DNA of 64,000 nucleotides, taken from contig CAWHVC010000003.1 of NCBI GenBank assembly GCA_963832745.1, positions 384,001 through 448,000 of the forward strand, in the 5' to 3' direction. The notes below the pieces were generated by a model. That model was not told the origin of the DNA. It did no database searches and worked only from the letters and a program-made list of their open reading frames with translations. Origin of the DNA: Candidatus Bathyarchaeota archaeon (GTDB taxonomy: Archaea; Thermoproteota; Bathyarchaeia; Bathyarchaeales; Bathycorpusculaceae). Below, piece after piece: positions 4,436 to 51,917 of the stretch; the stretch's first letter is position 1; each line of letters starts with the position of its first letter. A program made the position numbers and the translations under genes.

Positions 4436-4566
4436 TTCAACATGTTAATGGCGCGTTTTTTAGCCAATAGCACCTACCCCCCTTAGTGATTGCTGTTTTC
4501 ACAAGTTTTTTGAGTTTCTACCTACCCTATAGGTTCTGCATATTATTTCTAATAGGATCCAAATAG
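4436..4566. repeat. ~130-bp non-coding site, contiguous ('empty') copy; its halves recur at 46471-46520 and 50489-50545
   Basis: 4472-4491 ACCTACCCCCCTTAGTGATT is the exact reverse complement of 50489-50508; 4546-4566 TTTCTAATAGGATCCAAATAG is the exact reverse complement of 46471-46491; flanks also similar. Confidence 0.9.
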
Positions 4567-4582: not shown

Positions 4583-4637
4583 TTGGTGCGGAGGGTGGGA
4601 TTTGAACCCACGAACCCCTGCGGGATAGGAGCCTCAG
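4583..4637 (-). repeat. Outer att site: 55-bp duplication of the 3' half of tRNA-Leu (anticodon loop to CCA)
   Basis: Identical to 20742-20796. Confidence 0.97.
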
Positions 4638-5039: not shown

Positions 5040-5088
5040 TATAGTAGACCTACGAAGACATTATATTACCCACAACTAAATACAAAAG

Positions 5089-6183
5089 GTGGAAAAAATG
5101 GTTACCAGTGAAGAACTCGATGCATTAGACGATATATGTTTCGTAACAATTGACCAGTTTCTTAGGAATCATAACTTATCCGTTTTGGACAACAGATTGC
5201 TTGCAAATTACAAGGGTGAATTGGATGCTATTGCTGTAATGAGAGATATTTGGCTTAAAGAAATGCAAGCATCTCCTGAAAAACTAATAGATGTCTATGA
5301 ACAAACAAACGACCGCAAAAAAGTCATACATTATGAGAATCTTGTTGATGCTACACTAATCAATTTTGCAGCAGAACTTTTTGCCTCCATTCTTGGCGGG
5401 ATTATAAGCGGCATTATTGTGGCAGAATACTCAGAAAATCGAAAAAAGATCTACACAGGGATTAAGAAACTTTACAGAAAACCAATAGACAAGTTAAATG
5501 AAGCGGCGGGTAAAGTTTATGAAAAGTACGAAAAAGCCTTGAGGTATATCTTCCGTGCTTTGATACTGAAGAGTTATACTGAAAAACGCCAACTTCCATT
5601 TGACCAATATTTGCATGTTAGAGAAAGCATACGCCAAGAAGTTTATGGGTCTTCAAAGGCAAACTTGTCAAACGAGTTTGAGCAGTTCGAGAGATGTTTC
5701 CTATTTAATCACGGCTTACTAGATATGAAAGATTCGTTTGCCCAAAAGATTGCATTTGAACTAATCAAAAATTCAATTGATACAGACATTCCCAGTAGGA
5801 GTAAAACGCTTATCTCACAGACATCAGAGATTAGTCCAAAAGATTTTGATTCATACGAAGTAATTTTAACTGGTCTTGGGTGCGGAAAAAAAGGCATCGC
5901 CGCTGGCGAGGTTGCACTTGTTCTCTCTTACGATGATTGTCAAAACGTAAAATTAGGGGACGTCATGGTTTTTCATGAAATGAACCCAGACTATGTAGAG
6001 GCAGCAAGACGTTCGTCAGCTTTAATTGCAGAGGTGGGAGGTTTAACGTCTCACACCTCAATAATTGGTAGAGAACTAATGAAACCTGTAATCGTTAGCG
6101 CTGAAAATGCCACAACAATACTAAGAAACAGAGAAAAAATAATTGTTGATTCGACCAAAGGTGTTGCCTTTGCCCAAACATAA
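5089..6183 (+). CDS. Unknown N-terminal domain fused to PEP-utilizing enzyme mobile (phosphohistidine swivel) domain
   Basis: C-terminal GDVMVFHEMNPDY...ALIAEVGGLTSHTSIIGRELMKPVIV...IIVDSTKG matches the GGxTSH swivel signature; hydrophobic helix FASILGGIISGIIVA in N-part. Confidence 0.85.
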   Translation: MEKMVTSEELDALDDICFVTIDQFLRNHNLSVLDNRLLANYKGELDAIAVMRDIWLKEMQASPEKLIDVYEQTNDRKKVIHYENLVDATLINFAAELFASILGGIISGIIVAEYSENRKKIYTGIKKLYRKPIDKLNEAAGKVYEKYEKALRYIFRALILKSYTEKRQLPFDQYLHVRESIRQEVYGSSKANLSNEFEQFERCFLFNHGLLDMKDSFAQKIAFELIKNSIDTDIPSRSKTLISQTSEISPKDFDSYEVILTGLGCGKKGIAAGEVALVLSYDDCQNVKLGDVMVFHEMNPDYVEAARRSSALIAEVGGLTSHTSIIGRELMKPVIVSAENATTILRNREKIIVDSTKGVAFAQT

Positions 6184-8893: not shown

Positions 8894-8918
8894 TGGTGCG
8901 GAGGGTGGGATTTGAACC
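8894..8918 (-). repeat. Inner att site: 25-bp copy of tRNA-Leu 3' end (T-loop to CCA)
   Basis: TGGTGCGGAGGGTGGGATTTGAACC identical to 20743-20767 and 4584-4608. Confidence 0.93.
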
Positions 8919-19842: not shown

Positions 19843-20814
19843 CTAATAGAGTGTTTTTGGCTTGTTTAAGCAGTAGCCCCAATCAGTTTTTGTTACCAAG
19901 TTAAAGCCTTCTGAGAGATAACTAGTTAGTTCTTCTTTACTTTCTGCATAAACAACGTCATATTCGTTAGACTTTATCCACGATTTGACTATGTGAACAT
20001 ACCGCAAAGTATTGTTGATGTCGCAGTGTCTAGCAAATCGTTGAGTGTCCACAATGTCCTTAGTCTTAAAGTAATGCCATGAAATAGCATAGTGCCGAAA
20101 TGTATGAAAATGAATCTTATGAAAGTCTTGATTGCCTGTTTCTTTAGCTAATCTTTGCCTATAATCAACGATGGAATCGTTAATTCCAGTGGGTTTATTG
20201 ATGTTTGAGAATATTCGCTTTTCATTTCTTGGCAATTGGATAAGCAAACCAATTAGTTCATCAGATAAGCTATAGGTTTTAGTTCTGTGCCCTTTGTTTC
20301 CTGTTATCTTTACAGATTTTGTTATCAGGTTTAGGTCACTCCAATTCAAAATCCAAGCTTCACCACTGGAGCAACCAGTTTCCACGGACAATAAAATCAT
20401 AGACCTGACATGAATAGACCTAATTCGATACACAAACTGTTTAACCATCTCAGGATTAGGCACAAACATCTCTTCATTGTCACACGCTCTAAAATTCGGT
20501 CTATTGTAAGGTATTTTCTTAAACTCTGCATACTGAGTAATCGCATCAAGACAATTTGACTTAGACTTATCACACCAAGAAGAACTTAACACTTGAGCGG
20601 TCATGTCATTTGGTGAACCTGATAGTTTAGCAAAAAACCGAAGCTTCCTACTGATACTTGAATCACGATTACCTTTAGTGAACTTTAGCCATAAACCAAA
20701 ATTCAAAAGGTCAGATTCTTTGGACTTCCACAGGTTCTTTGTTGGTGCGGAGGGTGGGATTTGAACCCACGAACCCCTGCGGGATAGGAGCCTCAGTCCT
20801 ACGCCTTTGGCCAT
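19843..20814 (-). CDS. int: Tyrosine integrase, C-terminal fragment int(C), overlapping tRNA-Leu (SSV-type partition)
   Basis: ETGCSSGE, K in GNKGH, HTFRH, ARH, TLRYVH; frame runs through the tRNA. Confidence 0.92.
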   Translation of the reverse strand: MAKGVGLRLLSRRGSWVQIPPSAPTKNLWKSKESDLLNFGLWLKFTKGNRDSSISRKLRFFAKLSGSPNDMTAQVLSSSWCDKSKSNCLDAITQYAEFKKIPYNRPNFRACDNEEMFVPNPEMVKQFVYRIRSIHVRSMILLSVETGCSSGEAWILNWSDLNLITKSVKITGNKGHRTKTYSLSDELIGLLIQLPRNEKRIFSNINKPTGINDSIVDYRQRLAKETGNQDFHKIHFHTFRHYAISWHYFKTKDIVDTQRFARHCDINNTLRYVHIVKSWIKSNEYDVVYAESKEELTSYLSEGFNLVTKTDWGYCLNKPKTLY

Positions 20815-20830
20815 GCTGGGCGACCTCCGC
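20743..20830 (-). tRNA. tRNA-Leu(GAG), CCA encoded, long variable arm
   Basis: Acceptor stem GCGGAGG/CCTCCGC-ACCA; anticodon arm TAGGA-CTGAGGC-TCCTA; T-loop GTTCAAAT; TATA-like TTTATATT at ~20863-20870. Confidence 0.97.
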
Positions 20831-42417: not shown

Positions 42418-44508
42418 TTAAAGGAAGAACTGGATGATGATAGGCAAGAACACAAGCGTTGTCACGGACATTAACTTGATAAAGATGTTCTGTCCTGGCC
42501 CAGCTGCATCTTTCATTGGGTCGCCAACTGTGTCGCCTATAACTGCTGCTGCATGCGCTGGGCTGCCTTTGCCGCCGAATTGTCCACTTTCAACGTATTT
42601 CTTTGCATTGTCCCAAGTGTTCCCTACGTTTCCCATGAAGAGACCAAGTAGCAAGCCTGTGATGATAGCGCCAGCCACCATACCAATCATAGCTGAGGGA
42701 CCCAAAGTTATACCCACGATGATTGGTGCTAAGATTGCTACCGCGCCTGGGATGATGAGTTGCTTAAGTGCGTTGTCTGCAGTAATTTTGACGCATTGAG
42801 CATAATCGGGTTTAGCTGTTCCTTCCATTATGCCGGGGATTTGGCGGAATTGTCTGCGGATTTCTTTTACCATTCTGTCTGCACCGTTGCTTACACCTAA
42901 GACCACAACTGCAGTGAAGAAGGGCGGCATTGCTGCGCCAATTAGGATACCTGCAAATGTTCTTGCGTTAAGCAAACTCAGTATGGCGTCAGTTCCGCCT
43001 GCGATTGTGGCTGCGTATGCTGTGAAAGCTGGCAATTGCGTGATGGTTACAAAGAATGCGATTGCCGTTAGTGCTGCTGAACCGTCTGCGAAGCCTTTGC
43101 AAATTGATTTCATTGTGTTTCCGACTGAGTCAAGTTTGTCTGTGATGTCTCTTACTTTGGGGTCAAGTTTTGCTTGTTCTGCTATGCCTGCCGCGTTGTC
43201 AGTAATTGGTCCGTAAGCGTCTGCAGCTACTACGATGCCGATAATTGAAAGCATACCGACGGCTGAAATTGCTACGCCGTAGACTCCGCCCAGTAGGAAA
43301 GATGTCATTTCGGCTATGGCGATGAATATTATGGGAATAACTACGCTGTAGTGACCCATTGAGAAACCTTTTAGGATGGTCAATGCTGGCCCTTGTTCTG
43401 ATGCTGCTGCAGTGATTTTTGTTGGTCTGAAACTGCCGGAAGTGAAGTAGTTCGATGTTTGACCGATGATTACACCCGCGACTAAGCCGCTTATTAGTGA
43501 AATGAACACACCAGATGATAGAGTTTCATACCAGCCCAAACCAAGAACACCCATTAGCACAAAGAAAATTGCTGATGCAGTGACGATTGTGGCTATTATG
43601 GAAGCGCGGGTTAACGCTTTTTCTGGTGAACCTCTAACTGTGAATGTCGTAAATATTGATGAAATGATGCCGACGCCCGCGATGACTAAAGGAAGCAAAA
43701 CCCACGCCATGTTTGGAATGCCTGGTGAAATTTGAAATTCTGGAAGTACCGCGCCAAGAATCATTGTTGCAATGATTGAACCCACATAGGATTCGAACAA
43801 GTCAGCACCCATGCCTGCAACGTCACCTACGTTGTCGCCGACGTTGTCTGCAATTACACCGGGGTTTCTTGCGTCATCTTCTGGAATGTGCTCTTCGACT
43901 TTGCCTACAAGGTCTGCGCCTATGTCTGCTGCTTTAGTGAACATGCCGCCTCCGACACGCGCAAATAATGCAACAGTGCTTGCTCCGAAACTAAAGCCTA
44001 TAACTTCATTTACAACTGTGGGGGCAGTAGCAGCATCCAAACCGCCAAATAATGCAAAAACGCCCAAAACACCTAAAAGACCAATACCGACAATGCCAAA
44101 ACTTAGAACACTTCCGCCTTTAAAGGCGATGTCTAAAGCTTTTGATAAACCCTGAGTTCTTGCCGCGTTTGCGGTTCTTGAGTTAGACCGCACTGCAATG
44201 TTTAAGCCGATAAAACCGGTTGCGGCTGAACAGACTGCGCCAATAACATAAGATATTGCCATCAGGGGAGTTACAAATATGGCTATGCCGGCTGTGAGGA
44301 CGGCTACGATTATGGCAATAACGGAGTATTGTCGTTTTAGGTAAGCGGAGGCACCTTCTCTGATGTATGCAGAGATTTCTTTCATTTTATCGGTGCCTTC
44401 GTCCTGTTTTAGAATTTTCCATGAAGTGAATAATACGAATAATATGGAGAGTATTCCTGCGAGTGTTATAAACAGCGATAGCTCAAAGACGCCTATCATT
44501 TTTTCCAC
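42418..44508 (-). CDS. hppA: Membrane-bound ion-translocating pyrophosphatase, K+-independent signature
   Basis: DIGADLVGKVE, DNVGDNVGD, GNTMKS (Lys at the A/K site), GDTVGDP. Confidence 0.96.
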   Translation of the reverse strand: MEKMIGVFELSLFITLAGILSILFVLFTSWKILKQDEGTDKMKEISAYIREGASAYLKRQYSVIAIIVAVLTAGIAIFVTPLMAISYVIGAVCSAATGFIGLNIAVRSNSRTANAARTQGLSKALDIAFKGGSVLSFGIVGIGLLGVLGVFALFGGLDAATAPTVVNEVIGFSFGASTVALFARVGGGMFTKAADIGADLVGKVEEHIPEDDARNPGVIADNVGDNVGDVAGMGADLFESYVGSIIATMILGAVLPEFQISPGIPNMAWVLLPLVIAGVGIISSIFTTFTVRGSPEKALTRASIIATIVTASAIFFVLMGVLGLGWYETLSSGVFISLISGLVAGVIIGQTSNYFTSGSFRPTKITAAASEQGPALTILKGFSMGHYSVVIPIIFIAIAEMTSFLLGGVYGVAISAVGMLSIIGIVVAADAYGPITDNAAGIAEQAKLDPKVRDITDKLDSVGNTMKSICKGFADGSAALTAIAFFVTITQLPAFTAYAATIAGGTDAILSLLNARTFAGILIGAAMPPFFTAVVVLGVSNGADRMVKEIRRQFRQIPGIMEGTAKPDYAQCVKITADNALKQLIIPGAVAILAPIIVGITLGPSAMIGMVAGAIITGLLLGLFMGNVGNTWDNAKKYVESGQFGGKGSPAHAAAVIGDTVGDPMKDAAGPGQNIFIKLMSVTTLVFLPIIIQFFL

Positions 44509-44819
44509 CTTTTGCGTGTAAATGTTTCTGCATAGTGTCCGTTCACTCCCATATAAACCTATTTAATGATTGTTCATAGTTTTATTTAAAAAACAAAAAG
44601 TTTTTAATATAAACTCGTTTTTTCTGAAAAAATGTCATGGTACAGACCATTTTTGGGAACAAAACACAAATCACAAGTAGGCTTTTTATTTTTTAAAAAA
44701 ACATGTAAAAATGAACATTTGTTTTATTTATTTCATAAATCAAAAGTTTTTTCGCATGTTTGCTATTGCATAGTATTAAATACTAAACAAACGCAAAGAA
44801 GCTTTTTAGAGAAGGAGAA

Positions 44820-46470: not shown

Positions 46471-46520
46471 CTATTTGGATCCTATTAGAAACTATATGGT
46501 AGAAACCTATAGAGGGTAGG
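46471..46520. repeat. Left half-site flanking the Lrp-Lrp-propeller cassette
   Basis: Reverse complement of 4521-4566 (21 bp exact, remainder similar), ends in GGGTAGG. Confidence 0.85.
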
Positions 46521-46526
46521 CCAGAG

Positions 46527-47021
46527 TTAGCTTTTTTTGGGCAAATCTAATCCGTCGCACCTGATTTGGATTTTTGGAATCAAAGAATAGCCGAAGTAAG
46601 TCTGCGGCAGTAACATGGTTTCTATGCGGTCAATCCCCTCACATTTTCTGATTTCGCCAATAATCAAAGCTATCTGCTCTAAGTCTCTAATCCTTGCCCA
46701 AACAAAAAAATCAAATTCACCCATCAATTCATTAACCAAGCACACATCCAGCACAGCCTGAAGTTTTTGGAAGAGCACCTTTTTATCTGCGCCCCTCAAA
46801 CAAGTTAACATCAGAAAAGCGGTGCCTTGCTCCCCAAGCTTGCGGCCGTCAACAAGAATAGTGATTTTATGTATGATTCCCTCATTTTTCATTCTTTCAA
46901 ATCTTTTTCTCACAGTTTCTCTTGAAACACCTATTCTTTGGCTGATTTCCGAGAAGGGCATTTGTGCATCTTTAATTAATTCAGTTAAAATTTGAGTATC
47001 GATAGCATCCATGTCCATCAA
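46527..47021 (-). CDS. Lrp/AsnC family regulator
   Basis: DAQMPFSEISQRIGVSRETVRKR, GEFD. Confidence 0.93.
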   Translation of the reverse strand: MMDMDAIDTQILTELIKDAQMPFSEISQRIGVSRETVRKRFERMKNEGIIHKITILVDGRKLGEQGTAFLMLTCLRGADKKVLFQKLQAVLDVCLVNELMGEFDFFVWARIRDLEQIALIIGEIRKCEGIDRIETMLLPQTYFGYSLIPKIQIRCDGLDLPKKS

Positions 47022-47497
47022 TTTTCAGTCACCCTTAAGTCTCTTTCAAAGCTTCTATGACGACTGCCTGTCCAAATATTCACGTTAACGCTATTTACGC
47101 CTTGAATGTTCCGAATTTTAGAAATAGTTTCGTTTAACTCGTTTATGTCATGAGTCATAATGAATATGCATAAATTATATCTTCCAATGCTCTCAGCACA
47201 AATCACTACATGTTCTATCTGCCTAATTTTGGTTTTTACTTCGCTTACTAAAGTATTGCATACGTCAACAAGCACAGTAACCTCATAGGGGTCGCCAAAC
47301 ATTTCTTTATTTAGAAGCAGAGAGGTACCGATGATTACACCATTTATTTTCAGTTTTTTTATTCTTCTCAGAACCGCTACAGGAGTTATTCCACATTTTT
47401 CAGCAATGCTTTTCTGATTTTCTCTAGCGTCGGCTAAGAGAATTTTTAAAATTTCGATATCTACTTTATCGATTTTAGCGCCCGTACTAATCCCCAA
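47018..47497 (-). CDS. Lrp/AsnC family regulator
   Basis: DARENQKSIAEKCGITPVAVLRRIKKL, GRYN. Confidence 0.93.
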   Translation of the reverse strand: MGISTGAKIDKVDIEILKILLADARENQKSIAEKCGITPVAVLRRIKKLKINGVIIGTSLLLNKEMFGDPYEVTVLVDVCNTLVSEVKTKIRQIEHVVICAESIGRYNLCIFIMTHDINELNETISKIRNIQGVNSVNVNIWTGSRHRSFERDLRVTEN

Positions 47498-47598
47498 ACC
47501 CAGCCCGTAACTATTACAAAATCATTTTACTAAAAAAACTTGCCCTAATTTTACAACAGGAGTTACAAAAAATTCAAAAAAGGCCTGTTTAAGTTAAT

Positions 47599-47668
47599 TT
47601 TTGCAACATATTTTTGTTTTGCAAAATATTCAAAAAAACACGTAAAAAATTAACTTTTGCAAAATATT
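47599..47668. promoter_or_regulatory. Three TTTTGCAA(A/C)ATATT boxes in divergent promoter
   Basis: Copies at 47599, 47617 and 47655. Confidence 0.65.
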
Positions 47669-47739
47669 TTGACATATTTTGAAAAGGCTTAAAAGGCAAA
47701 ACAAAGGAACGCTCTCTGAACGGAGGAAAAAAATTAAAA

Positions 47740-50305
47740 ATGCAAATGAAAATAAACAAAAAAAACAGAATGATACTTGCAACTATTGTAACAACGCTAT
47801 TTCTGCTGTCATCAATCGCTGCAATAATACCAGTAAATGCACAACAAATGCAAAACCCAAACACTGCCGGCGGCGCGTTACCCGCAGGAGTAAACCCTGA
47901 TGTTGTAATGGAAGGAAAAGTATTCCTCAGCTTCAGCCCTAACCCAATTGGAGTAAACCAAGAATTACTAGTCAACGTATGGAGCATACCTGCCCCCGGA
48001 GCCAACAGAGCCCACACAGGATACACTGTCACATTCACAAAACCAGACGGAACAAAAGACGTCATCGGACCCTTTAACTCATTTGTAGCAGATGGAACTA
48101 ACTGGTTCACATACACCCCAGACCAAGTTGGTAACTGGACAGTACAATTTACATATCCAGGCGACTACTATCCAGCAGGAAGATACGTCAACGGCGTTCT
48201 TAACAATTCAGCACCACCCGGATCAAGCTTCATGGACCAACGCGATTATCCAGAAACATGGTATAAACCAGCTGAAACCCCAGTACAAACACTTGAAGTA
48301 CAACAAGACCCCGTAATGTCATGGTATTCACCACTACCAACTGATTATTGGACAAGACCAATCTCTCCAGAAAACAGAGAATGGTCAGCAATCGGCGGCA
48401 ACTACCCTTACGCATACTACAACACTATGTGCCGTGATAATGGCCCATTCATCACAGCCCCAAACACATCGCACATAGTCTGGAAACAACAAGAAGCAGT
48501 AGCTGGCATTATAGGCGGTGAAGCAGGAACAATACAGCATATCAGCTCAAGCAGGCACTCCAAGCGTAATTTACCTCGGCAGATGTTACCAAACTCTAAC
48601 AGTACCAGTCAACGGCGTTCCCACAAGCTGTGCAGTATGCTATGATTTGCAAACAGGAAAACAATACTACGCCATACCGGTCGCGCAAGGCGGAGTAACA
48701 CCAACAGCAATATCTTATATTTCACCAACCGCAGTAGCAGGCATCGGAAGCATCGCTTCAGGCAGTTTCACTGTTGAATTAATAACATTAGCTGGTGGAG
48801 CAAGCATGTATGGGCCTCCAGCACCGCTGCGACTATACAAAATAGACCCATATACAGGCGCTGTCACTTTTAACATGTCACTACCTGCATTAGCATCGGG
48901 AACAATTTACAACAACGGCCTTGTACTAAGCACACAGACAATTAACGCATCACGCGGCGAATATAGGCTAATAAACTGGACTACCGCTGGATCTAGCACA
49001 AACTTTGCAACAAGAATATTCAGCAACGTAAGCTGGCCAACCAACATGGCACCTGGTGGACAGGGATTATCAGCCGATTTCAATACTGGAGTAGCGGTTG
49101 GAACAGTAGCAGGCATCTATGGATCAAACTCTAATGGAGCAGCCGTTACTGGAGGAGACTTCGGATTAGCTTCAGGCGCTTACGGAACACGGATAGTTGG
49201 AATCAGCCTAATAACAGGACAAGTACTCTACAACTTTACAACTACAGACACATCATTCCAGCCCGGAGCAAACTCTTACGTAGACGGAAAACTCCTAATG
49301 CCAATGGACATGGGCATTCTTAACTGCTATGATGTACTCACCGGAAAACTTCTTTGGACCTCTCATGATTTTGATTACCCATGGGGAGCATTCGGAGCAT
49401 ATAACGCTGAAGGAGCATACGGCTTATACTATTGGCAAACATACGATGGAGTAGTTGCATTCAACGTAAGCACAGGACAACGACAATGGAAATTCCAGGC
49501 ACCTGCACCAGCATTTGAAACGCCTTACACAATGTCTAACGGTAGTAGTCAATATGCCTTCTTTGGCGCAGCCCAGATAGCTGACGGAAAAATCTATACA
49601 TACAACACCGAACACACCGCAAGCCAACCAATCACTAGAGGTTGGAAACTCTATTGCATTGACGCATATACGGGCGAAGGATTATGGAACATCACAGGTC
49701 CAATGCAACCAGGCGCAATATCAGACGGATACCTAACCGCAGGCAACGCATATGACGGATACATGTACGTCTTTGGCAAAGGTCAATCAGCCACCACAGT
49801 ATCAGCACCTCAAACCCAAATCACCACCGAAACAAACGTCATAATTTCAGGAACCGTCCTAGACCAGTCACCAGGACAACCAGGCACACCATGCGTTTCC
49901 AAAGAATCAATGACGGGAATGATGGAATACATACACATGCAGCATCAAATGCCAGCAGACGTTATAGGCGTACCAGTATCTATTGACGCAGTTGACCCCA
50001 ATGGCAACTCAGTACATTTAGGGGATGCAGTAAGCGATGCAAGCGGCACATTCTCATACGTCTGGACCCCAACAGTGGAAGGCAACTACAAGATAACTGC
50101 AACATTCATGGGCGACGACTCATACGGCAGCAGTTGGGCAGAAACACACGCAACCGTAGTTAATGCCCCAGCAACATCACCTTCACCATCGCAGGTCAAC
50201 TTTGATTCAGTCAACAGCAACATAACAACCACAATCATAGCAGGAGTAGTAGCCATCATCATTACAGTACTACTAGTTGGTTTGCTAATACTGCGAAAGA
50301 AATAA
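47740..50305 (+). CDS. Secreted PQQ-like beta-propeller repeat surface protein with C-terminal TM anchor; +1 frameshift near 48528
   Basis: Signal peptide; repeats D..TG..LW; GYMYVFGKG; TM plus RKK; ORFs join as GGEAG-QYSISAQ. Confidence 0.85.
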
Positions 50306-50429
50306 ATCGCAAAAACCAACACCATTTTTTCTTTTTTTAAAAAAATCTAAGAAGGCATGTCTGGACTAAATTTTCAAGCCAAAATTATTTTGAAATTCAG
50401 GTGTTCAATTTCCCTATCAAATCATATAA

Positions 50430-50545
50430 GGGTAGGTCTTTTCAGTAGGGGTAGGCTCTAACTGCGTTTTTTCAACCTCAAAATTGCAAATCACTAAGGG
50501 GGGTAGGTCCGTATTGGCTAATTTTTGCGCTATTAACATGTTGAA
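50430..50545. repeat. Right half-site flanking the cassette
   Basis: 50489-50545 is reverse-complement similar to 4436-4491 (20 bp exact); extra GGGTAGG at 50430 and 50449. Confidence 0.85.
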
Positions 50546-50663
50546 AAACAGTGGTAATTATGAAAGAACGGTTTGTATACAAAAGCATCAACCAAACACA
50601 GTTTTTCACCATGGCAATTCTTATCTAGCCCCTCAGAATTACCGACAAGTATAGAAGGCACTT

Positions 50664-51917
50664 TTGATGTCGCAAGAACAAACACCCTTAAGCGTAGCCC
50701 AAACCCAACTCAGGCTCGCAGCCAAAAAACTTCACCTTGACGCAGGCATGCATAAAATGCTCAGCCAACCAAAACGCACACTCACTATCAGCATTGACGT
50801 GCACATGGATAATGGCAGTATCGGCGTCTTCAGCGGCGTTCGTGTGCAGCATTGGGATGTTTTGGGACCGTTCAAAGGCGGATTGCGCTTTTACCCCGGT
50901 ATAACTATAGAAGAAGTCACGGCGCTTTCGATGCTTATGACTTGGAAATGCGCGATTGCTGGGATTCCGTTTGGCGGCGCCAAAGGCGGCATCTGCGTTG
51001 ACAGCAAAAAACTCAGCAAACATGAACTTGAACGAATAACAAGACGTTATGTCAGTTTAATCTACAATTATTTAGGACCTCACCTTGATGTTCCAGCGCC
51101 AGACATGTACACTGACCAGCAAACCATGGCGTGGATAATGGACACTTACAGCCAATTAACCGGTTACAGCGTACCAGAATGCGTTACAGGTAAACCAGTA
51201 GAAATCGGCGGCTCCGAAGGAAGAACCGAAGCCACTGGACGTGGAGTAATTCATTGCATGCGTCAAGCTGTAGAAAACAATGGCATAAAACTCAAGAACG
51301 CAAAAATTGTCGTTCAAGGTTTTGGAAACGTTGGCTACCACGCAGCAGTCGCAGCACAAGAATTGGGATGCAAAATCGTTGCAGTAAGCGATTCCACAGG
51401 CGGAGTCTACAATCCCGATGGTTTAAACCCCCAAGCGGTTTTAGCTCATAAGGAGCAAACTCAAACGGTACAGAACTACAAGGACTCAAAGAGCATAAAT
51501 AACGAGGAGTTGCTTGAGTTGCCTTGTGATGTTTTGATTCCTGCGGCGTTAGAAAATCAGATTACATGCAAAAACGCTGACCAAATCAAGGCTAAAATGA
51601 TTGTTGAAGCCGCCAATGGACCGACCACACCTGAAGCTGACAAAGCATTATACGAGAAGGGTGTCTGCTTAATTCCAGACATTTTGGCTAATTGTGGAGG
51701 CGTTACAGTTAGCTATTTTGAATGGGTACAAAACTTAACTAGAGAGTACTGGCCGCTTGATTTGGTTAACCACAAATTGGAAGATAAAATGACCAAAGCC
51801 TTCAACGATGTTTACGCTCTTGCAAAGAAGGAGAACAGCGATTTGCGTACTGGTGCGTTGATGCTTGGCGTAGGCAGAGTAGCGGAAGGGGTTAAAATGC
51901 GGGGACTATGGCCTTAA
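50664..51917 (+). CDS. gdhA: Glutamate dehydrogenase (Glu/Leu/Phe/Val family)
   Basis: KGGLR, MTWKC, GGAKGG, DVPAPD, GFGNVG, EAANGP, SYFEW. Confidence 0.95.
   Translation: MMSQEQTPLSVAQTQLRLAAKKLHLDAGMHKMLSQPKRTLTISIDVHMDNGSIGVFSGVRVQHWDVLGPFKGGLRFYPGITIEEVTALSMLMTWKCAIAGIPFGGAKGGICVDSKKLSKHELERITRRYVSLIYNYLGPHLDVPAPDMYTDQQTMAWIMDTYSQLTGYSVPECVTGKPVEIGGSEGRTEATGRGVIHCMRQAVENNGIKLKNAKIVVQGFGNVGYHAAVAAQELGCKIVAVSDSTGGVYNPDGLNPQAVLAHKEQTQTVQNYKDSKSINNEELLELPCDVLIPAALENQITCKNADQIKAKMIVEAANGPTTPEADKALYEKGVCLIPDILANCGGVTVSYFEWVQNLTREYWPLDLVNHKLEDKMTKAFNDVYALAKKENSDLRTGALMLGVGRVAEGVKMRGLWP

Follow-up and report, generated by a model that had tools for sequence, protein, structure and literature searches.

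Repetitive extragenic palindromic sequences (REPs) play a role in rearrangements, and the BOX elements of Streptococcus pneumoniae, organized as boxA - boxB(n) - boxC, are thought to be mobilized like miniature inverted-repeat transposable elements (MITEs) and to be folded as RNA. REPs and the bacterial interspersed mosaic elements (BIMEs) of enterobacteria and pseudomonads are treated in three earlier reports (PMC2817692, PMC3333891, PMC1525189). Integrons, including those of archaea, are characterized by an IntI integrase, attC sites that form single-stranded hairpins, and tandem cassette arrays mostly in one orientation (PMC9668308). Here we compare with these systems a short repeat from a 64,000-nt stretch of a Candidatus Bathyarchaeota genome (the window, C3:384001-448000 of genome G000; 3.02 Mb, five contigs, 99% complete), in which two halves of the repeat, L and R, bracket two genes for Lrp/AsnC-family regulators and one for a beta-propeller protein. 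The block so bracketed lies between a glutamate synthase-related gene (gltB-like, hereafter gltB) and the glutamate dehydrogenase gene gdhA.

The initial annotation of the window, made from sequence alone, had taken this block and a contiguous L-R sequence at 4436-4566 for the filled and empty forms of one site, and had proposed a system that mobilizes cassettes. We find instead that the bracketed block is old and vertically inherited, and that a mobile cassette at this locus is not supported. The two halves belong to a family of some 150 dispersed copies, so that matching half-sites round a gene block may mimic a filled versus empty transposon site and call for caution. From its organization and behavior, the element is best filed as a new lineage-restricted mosaic intergenic repeat, BOX-like in organization and REP/BIME-like in behavior, and a member of neither group. 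Bathyarchaeia rank among the most abundant archaea of sediments, and next to nothing has been learned about genome change in them; the repeat family offers a concrete handle on genome plasticity and surface-protein turnover in this uncultured lineage.

The bracketing halves and the repeat family

Read directly, the reverse complement of 4436-4566 consists of an L part (CTATTTGGATCCTATTAGAAA...ACCTATAGGGTAGG), a spacer, and an R part (AATCACTAAGGGGGGTAGGTGCTATTGGCTAA...GCGCCATTAACATGTTGAA). L recurs at 46471 with 21 nt exact and R at 50489 with 20 nt exact, with order and orientation unchanged, and the motif GGGTAGG is found at 46514-46520, 50430-50436, and 50449-50455, all as initially annotated. 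Another 34 nt of the R half match at 82%. These matches are more than chance, since they are the top-ranking inverted-repeat pairs (I1, I2, I6) of the whole window. The features of the locus are as follows, modules and units being those of the repeat layout given further below.

4436..4566, minus strand: complete two-unit repeat copy (the annotated "empty site"), with module A, unit, 45-nt spacer, unit, module D, and module E; best profile match, 108 bits
44820..46439, plus strand: glutamate synthase-related gene (gltB-like), left neighbor; Pfam Glu_synthase 2.8e-10
46471..46542, plus strand: L half, with quasi-palindromic module A (CTATTTGGATCCTATTAG) and the first G-run unit, whose GGGTAGG ends at 46520; profile positions 1-70
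46527..47021, minus strand: first Lrp/AsnC-family regulator; Pfam HTH_AsnC-type 8.6e-15, NCBIfam LysM/AsnC-like below cut-offs
47018..47497, minus strand: second Lrp/AsnC-family regulator; Pfam HTH_AsnC-type 1e-11, AsnC_trans_reg 1.2e-7
47740..50305, plus strand: secreted PQQ-like beta-propeller with Ig-like domains and a C-terminal membrane anchor; Pfam PQQ_2 2.4e-8, Big_3_5; one of 25 paralogue loci
50414..50545, plus strand: R part, running from a degenerate first unit (GGGTAGG at 50430) through a middle unit (50449) and the C unit (50489-50508) to hairpin module D and module E (...ATTAACATGTTGAA); matches profile positions 39-132 over 50446-50544
50574..50602, plus strand: "F" motif TGTATACAAAAGCATCAACCAAACACAG, located upstream of gdhA and native to that gene; frequent after R ends
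50664..51917, plus strand: glutamate dehydrogenase gene gdhA, right neighbor; Pfam ELFV_dehydrog 6.5e-85

The R half had been taken to start at 50489. The 20-nt match does lie there, but homology on the R side begins earlier, at about 50414, and takes in two more G-run units; from this point the R side aligns to three-unit copies such as that at C1:537760. Each side of the block carries a copy of one ~25-nt unit. The Pfam scan detected no recombinase domain within the block, in agreement with the initial annotation, and its contents are the two Lrp genes and the propeller only. The latter had been described as one large gene, and it does encode a secreted PQQ-like propeller, but in this assembly it occupies two overlapping frames, 47740-48645 and 48518-50305 (overlap 48518-48645). 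The break stems from one extra A near 48532 relative to genome G008 of a sister species, where the gene is a single open frame, and points to a pseudogene or to an error of assembly. Base composition is not decisive on foreign origin: GC is 0.32-0.40 in the Lrp genes, which makes them somewhat AT-rich, and a typical 0.43-0.47 in the propeller.

The 131-nt "empty site" was then used as an nhmmer query against the whole assembly with two rounds of profile rebuilding, and the matches rose over the three rounds from 58 to 144 to 151. By profile coordinates, 63 matches contain both L and R, 61 L only, 26 R only, and one neither. The notion of a filled and an empty site thus holds insofar as L and R represent the two halves of a single type of element, but the "empty site" is only one of 151 dispersed copies, 63 of them complete. 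Alignment of 45 of 61 full-length copies gave a layout of module A, one to three units with variable spacers, module D, and module E, with copies of 85-200 bp. Module A is the quasi-palindrome CTATTWGGATCCWAWTAG; the unit, present one to three times per copy, is ~28 nt long (YTATGCAGAAACCTATAGGGGGTAGGT) and ends in GGGGGTAGGT; module D is a small hairpin, TATTGGC..loop..GCCATTA; and module E is YATGTTGAAAAWCAGT. Many copies have an extra conserved module on their left side. In the alignment, the outer half-sites of modules A and D are mutually inverted (CTAWTRG), and the unit reads as having short inverted arms, ACCTA...TAGGT, around its G-run, which also form a small hairpin in the fold.

With a crude longest-ORF (open reading frame) gene model, 142 of the 151 matches are intergenic. 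The copies are dispersed singly, about one per 20 kb, and tandem L-L-R arrays also exist. The orientation of 62 complete intergenic copies relative to the neighboring genes showed no preference over the four contexts (17/16/17/12), which argues against a promoter or terminator module, and this candidate was ruled out on that ground. Strand or replication bias was likewise rejected, orientations being mixed on all five contigs. Neither as RNA (both strands) nor as DNA did the element fold better than shuffles (whole-element z-scores -0.9 to +0.84; DNA values for both strands of two copies 0.15, -0.90, 0.58, and 0.60). In Rfam the window had no match at the gathering score except tRNA-Leu, and four other repeat-bearing loci had none at E <= 0.1; a structured RNA was rejected on folding and Rfam results together. 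Clear terminal inverted repeats were not found on the copies, and the flanks of 51 full copies revealed no target-site duplications, only a 4-5-nt CAAC/GTTG match and the inverted half-sites.

By BLAST the repeat is present in 7 of 41 genomes of this Bathyarchaeia genus, G000 included, and is restricted to a subclade of it. Copies are many in G008, G042, and G052, with five matches in G005 and single matches in G012 and G046. The gltB loci closest to that of the window carry titles of Bathyarchaeia near "Bathy-6" genomes. A literature search under Bathyarchaeota and miniature inverted-repeat returned nothing on the family, and the main text of the Bathy-6 genome paper (PMC11697101) has no mention of repeat, integron, transpos-, mobile, or MITE.

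Consecutive matches 150-5000 nt apart form 20 pairs, of which five are an L-only match followed by an R-only match in correct order and orientation; wrong configurations numbered zero. Shuffling the labels over the fixed positions gave a mean of 0.70 correct split pairs (P = 0.00055), so that the paired orientation initially annotated is a property of the genome at large. The five split pairs are:

Pair 1: the bracketed Lrp-Lrp-propeller block in the window; gap 3904 nt
Pair 2, C3:709665-710667: one secreted-protein gene
Pair 3, C5:299895-300913: one secreted-protein gene
Pair 4, C2:387822-389036: one secreted-protein gene
Pair 5, C5:382338-382700: 217-nt gap with no convincing gene

The three pairs of ~1 kb enclose one gene each, all from one paralogous family of secreted, membrane-anchored proteins (one forward, two reversed, one broken). 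Its members have 270-300 amino acids, a signal peptide with a PSVPEF motif behind it, and a second PSVPEF motif in front of the C-terminal membrane anchor, and the family has no match in Pfam or NCBIfam. It occupies 14 loci in G000, including C3:709725-710549, C2:388062-388862, and C5:300417-300680, and 8 of the 14 lie within 1.5 kb of a repeat, where 2.4 would be expected (P = 0.0009; with a tandem pair counted once, P = 0.003). The propeller paralogues are not enriched near repeats, with 3 of 25 loci within 1.5 kb versus 5.2 expected, and the repeat therefore does not explain the propeller expansion, contrary to the initial suggestion that it could help to do so. A G-run unit stands on either side of the cargo in each of the five split pairs, and the core forms direct repeats of 8-15 nt. 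Cargo-free two-unit copies carry those direct repeats too, which makes them a property of the element and not an insertion footprint.

Mobilizing machinery and likeness to described systems

PF07282 (TnpB) and PF01797 (Y1 transposase) had no match in the 99% complete genome, a search that did not extend to DDE, IS110, or serine recombinases, and ends of the IS200/IS605 type were ruled out, there being no TnpB or TnpA. None of the L...R pairs in G000 encloses a transposase. The best match to the integron integrase model TIGR02249 reached 33.6 bits versus a cut-off of 265. PF00589 has nine matches in the genome; none is in a cargo, and the nearest ones lie 0.4-21 kb from a repeat. On the window contig the nearest is at ~19990-20421 beside tRNA-Leu and is part of another element. 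The two largest of the nine proteins belong to families found in 34 and 35 of the 41 genus genomes versus 7 of 41 for the repeat, and neither family was found in repeat-rich G052 (61% complete). A recombinase whose distribution follows L and R, anticipated by the initial annotation, thus did not emerge: being genus-wide and not found in G052, these two families, two of the nine PF00589 proteins, do not track the repeat.

The repeat resembles REPs and BIMEs in being short, non-coding, intergenic, and present in more than 100 copies per genome as modular mosaics with variable linkers, in providing DNA insertion sites, and in having positions conserved between related genomes. It differs in its archaeal host, in carrying ordinary genes rather than insertion sequences as cargo, and in having no REP-associated Y1 transposase (RAYT; PF01797). 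Its units are direct repeats instead of alternating inverted ones, and it forms only small local palindromes (modules A and D) and no stable stem-loops. With BOX elements, compared by organization and not by sequence, it shares a head, a variable number of internal units, and a tail, as well as being non-coding and dispersed in spacers, whereas neither MITE-like mobilization nor an RNA fold applies to the Bathyarchaeia repeat.

The likeness to integrons lies in the notion of gene insertion at a recurring recombination site, whose core would then stand on both sides. In contrast to integrons, the repeat has no IntI, no hairpin fold, single dispersed copies, and mixed cargo orientation; same-orientation tandem arrays with sites less than 4 kb apart, by which integrons are recognized, were not seen. 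An integron was rejected, because each of the defining features tested (IntI, attC fold, arrays) failed. MITEs are set apart by terminal inverted repeats, target-site duplications, and an autonomous partner, none of which was found here, the last within the limits of the transposase search given above. An integrative element with duplicated att (attachment) sites would differ as well, for it would have an integrase gene beside one att site, and no integrase gene lies inside the bracketed DNA.

Sister genome comparison and history of the gltB-gdhA interval

G008, from a sister species with ~82% DNA identity in genes (~82-87% for neighboring genes), was the one sister genome compared in detail. 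At the C3:709665 locus it also has a split pair, with a cargo of 1984 nt and two secreted-protein genes versus 871 nt and one gene in G000; the second gene has been added with no unit separating the two. The C2:387822 locus, R...gene...L in G000, is matched in G008 by an intact 147-nt copy next to the same R-side flank, and the L-side flanks are not orthologous. The two G000 flanks of the C5:299895 locus lie on different G008 contigs, the right one preceded by an intact 85-nt copy, and each of the G008 partner sequences adjoins yet another repeat copy in G000.

We then followed 20 further G008 copies with their flanks, a biased sample in that they were best BLAST matches, and one without a control for breakpoints at repeat-free intergenic sites. 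For 18 of them a G000 repeat stands at the end of the flank homology, the exceptions being L117 and L124. At L124, a split L-607 nt-R block of G008 is wholly missing from G000 together with neighboring DNA, and the flanks there are 324 nt apart. At four loci (L122, L126, L128, L133) the flanks on either side of the copy differ in the G000 region or orientation to which they map, and the break coincides with the repeat; L123, the orthologue of the 4436-4566 copy, is rearranged locally. L-only or R-only states without cargo occur at the orthologous sites L125 and L132; L125 is a complete copy in G008 and R-only in G000. At L116 a 1.4-kb gene replaces module A in G000, which indicates that ends are not always at the G-run. 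GGGTAGG, initially proposed as a boundary, does not mark every gene-sized breakpoint.

Seven orthologous pairs of copies are 73-94% identical. Six of the seven are unequal in length, by 14-63 nt, and the difference invariably falls after the first G-run and before module D; the 4436-4566 copy has 130 nt in G000 versus 84 nt and a single unit in G008 (L123), a difference of exactly one core-to-next segment. Because 18 of 20 positions are common to sister species at ~82% DNA identity, the copies are old and have moved little of late. The two species do differ in the presence or absence of DNA bounded by the repeat. With such differences, paired orientation, and alike cargo all found, the outcome that the initial annotation had set against its own proposal, in which L and R lie unpaired at random gene ends in invariant relatives, was not what we observed.

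Among 80 gltB loci from public Bathyarchaeia genomes, gdhA lies directly downstream in 38, an Lrp pair in two (L038, L054), and something else in 34, while six are cut by contig ends. The gltB-gdhA distance in the 38 adjacent loci ranges from 83 to 1349 nt, near and distant relatives alike, and the adjacency is also found in G003 and in G023, the latter from another family. Being common to near and distant relatives and to another family, the adjacency is the ancestral state, relative to which the block is an insertion. The block was seen beside gltB only (G008, L038, L054) and never at another repeat copy, and its DNA was not found in five other repeat-bearing genomes (G042, G052, G005, G012, G046), which fits vertical descent and not the mobilization initially proposed. 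The L copy stands at the same place after gltB, intact in L054 and diverged in G008 and L038, and the L-Lrp-Lrp-propeller arrangement is thus older than these species. After the propeller, G008 has a small complete repeat copy and then genes that adjoin the C3:382777 copy in G000.

An empty L-R junction in the gltB-gdhA interval of relatives had been anticipated. The profile was run at a lax threshold on 18 of the 38 adjacent spacers, and the junction was found in none; L, R, and cargo are jointly missing from G003 and from 17 of the 18 spacers. The remaining one, L044, contains R alone (profile 69-131, E = 2e-5 among 18 spacers) directly before the gdhA F motif, with no L and no cargo, and L045 and L042 have, by eye, GGGTAGG-like remnants at the same position. 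The chances are about equal that R was resident at gdhA before the block arrived and that the L part was lost in L044, as it was at L125. It is likewise about as likely as not that the L and the R of this locus formed a single contiguous copy at one time. Metagenome reads from two marsh runs shared 0.08 and 0.06 of sampled words and yielded, at 85% likeness, only scattered short contigs. A read joint 46520->50575 has a shorter side of 20 letters and the multi-copy F motif as its right side; such joints arise from repeats or other organisms, and it is evidence neither way.

Several further observations concern the two glutamate genes. A gdhA orthologue was not found in G008, G042, or G005 (the best match, of 29-30% identity, is a paralogue), and stop codons break gdhA in G052; the loci examined in these four genomes are L135-L139. 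Among the repeat-bearing relatives tested, the gene seems to be in the course of being lost. In three loci with adjacent gltB and gdhA (L065, L066, L068), gdhA is followed closely, on the opposite strand, by one or two distant Lrp/AsnC genes with 22-30% identity to those of the block. Regulators of the Lrp type may therefore have a functional tie to the glutamate gene pair rather than being foreign cargo.

The F motif, GTATACARAAGCATCA(A/C)C(A/C)AAACA, has 13 copies in G000, seven of them, including that of gdhA, just 3' of an R end, and five clustered at C1:212-220 kb. It lies upstream of gdhA in G000, G003, and many relatives, including ones without the repeat there. Stretches of 28-33 nt match at 91-100% in many genus genomes whose genes are only 70-80% identical, and the motif may be a shared promoter or operator.

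Explanations for the block, and minor features of the window

We lean, with a confidence slightly above even, towards a BIME/BOX-like mosaic repeat that acts as a hot spot for host recombination, with the bracketed block as an old fixed rearrangement. The element encodes nothing and, most copies being at the same positions in the sister species, is not actively transposing. Its internal direct repeats and many dispersed copies would serve as substrates for the host recombination and replication-slippage machinery. As a result, the stretch between units would be gained and lost, gene-sized DNA would sometimes be caught between an L part and an R part, and inversion and translocation breakpoints would fall at copies. 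Such an event would have brought the Lrp-Lrp-propeller block in between gltB and gdhA, neighbors by ancestry, at a time before the divergence of G000, G008, and the genome or genomes behind L038 and L054, and the block would have been inherited vertically since. The data themselves establish the family and its modules, the excess of split pairs, the indels between orthologous copies, the breakpoints that fall at copies, the ancestral gltB-gdhA adjacency, and that this block is not mobile; host recombination at the units is the cause that we infer.

Several points weigh against this reading. The acting enzyme has no direct evidence, and homologous recombination of two complete copies leaves complete copies and not an L-only and an R-only one, so that the insertion step is unexplained. 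The orthologous copies are as conserved as the neighboring genes or more so (73-94% versus ~82-87%), and a purely passive hot spot does not predict the enrichment of one secreted-protein family near repeats (8 of 14 versus 2.4). Moreover, the breakpoints lack a control at repeat-free intergenic sites, and the detailed comparison is with one sister genome. The high conservation of copies and the enrichment beside one surface-protein family suggest that the repeat has an additional cellular role beyond that of a recombination substrate.

The alternative that fares best, though we regard it as unlikely, is that the halves are two independent partial copies, R having already been upstream of gdhA and L having arisen or arrived separately after gltB, with the matching order and orientation a coincidence. 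The R-only spacer of L044, which has neither L nor cargo, and the remnants seen by eye in L045 and L042 are consistent with this, as are the commonness of the L-only class (61), the existence of tandem L-L-R arrays, and the cargo-free L-only or R-only states at L125 and L132. The two units flanking the cargo are, again by eye, only about two thirds alike. However, with 0.70 split pairs expected and five seen, only about one in seven of the observed pairs would be due to chance, and the R side aligns to complete three-unit copies from right after module A, that is, over everything except the share of L.

An improbable explanation is a dedicated cassette platform, in which the G-run unit would be an att-like core and a trans-acting site-specific recombinase would insert and excise circular gene cassettes, giving unit-cargo-unit. 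It would account for the core direct repeats (8-15 nt) flanking the cargo in all five split pairs, for the inverted arms ACCTA...TAGGT around the G-run, for the enrichment of split pairs, for the secreted, anchored protein in all four gene-bearing cargos, and for orthologous copies that differ by exactly a core-to-core segment. But no recombinase lies in or beside any cargo, no integron integrase exceeds the cut-off, and the two recombinase families tested are far more widespread than the repeat. Furthermore, no cargo was seen at a second repeat site, gene-sized differences also end outside the core (the second gene in G008 without a unit; the 1.4 kb that replaces module A in G000), and cargo-free two-unit copies share the direct repeats. 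In a more specific version, which we regard as similarly improbable, the G-run unit would be the attachment core of an unrecognized trans-acting archaeal recombinase that moves single surface-protein and regulator genes in and out of ~150 dispersed docking sites; if true, it would be a "scattered integron" without arrays that diversifies the cell surface of Bathyarchaeia.

Least probable of all is a composite non-autonomous transposon that would end in L and R and move as one piece with its cargo, and whose cargo-less, MITE-like miniature form would be represented by the 85-130-bp copies: the joint absence of L, R, and cargo from G003 and 17 of 18 spacers, the L124 block wholly missing from G000, the free cargo orientation, and the mutually inverted outer half-sites of modules A and D (CTAWTRG) would fit it, but target-site duplications, clear terminal inverted repeats, an autonomous partner (PF07282, PF01797), and a second copy of any cargo were all lacking, and 18 of 20 copies share their positions with the sister species.

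Two minor observations concern other parts of the window. The 3' part of tRNA-Leu(GAG) (20743-20830) is exactly copied at 4583-4637 (55 nt) and 8894-8918 (25 nt), and a tyrosine recombinase gene (19843-20814, minus strand) abuts the tRNA gene; together, the copies and the recombinase are the signature of one or two integrated elements spanning ~4.6-20.7 kb. The 4436-4566 repeat copy is 16 nt outside the distal tRNA fragment. Finally, a 29-nt inverted match (83%) between 5072-5100 and 44497-44525, both including AAAAGGTGGAAAAAATG, covers the starts of unrelated genes, an open reading frame at 5089 and a pyrophosphatase gene at 44508 on the minus strand, and probably represents a shared ribosome-binding and start context.

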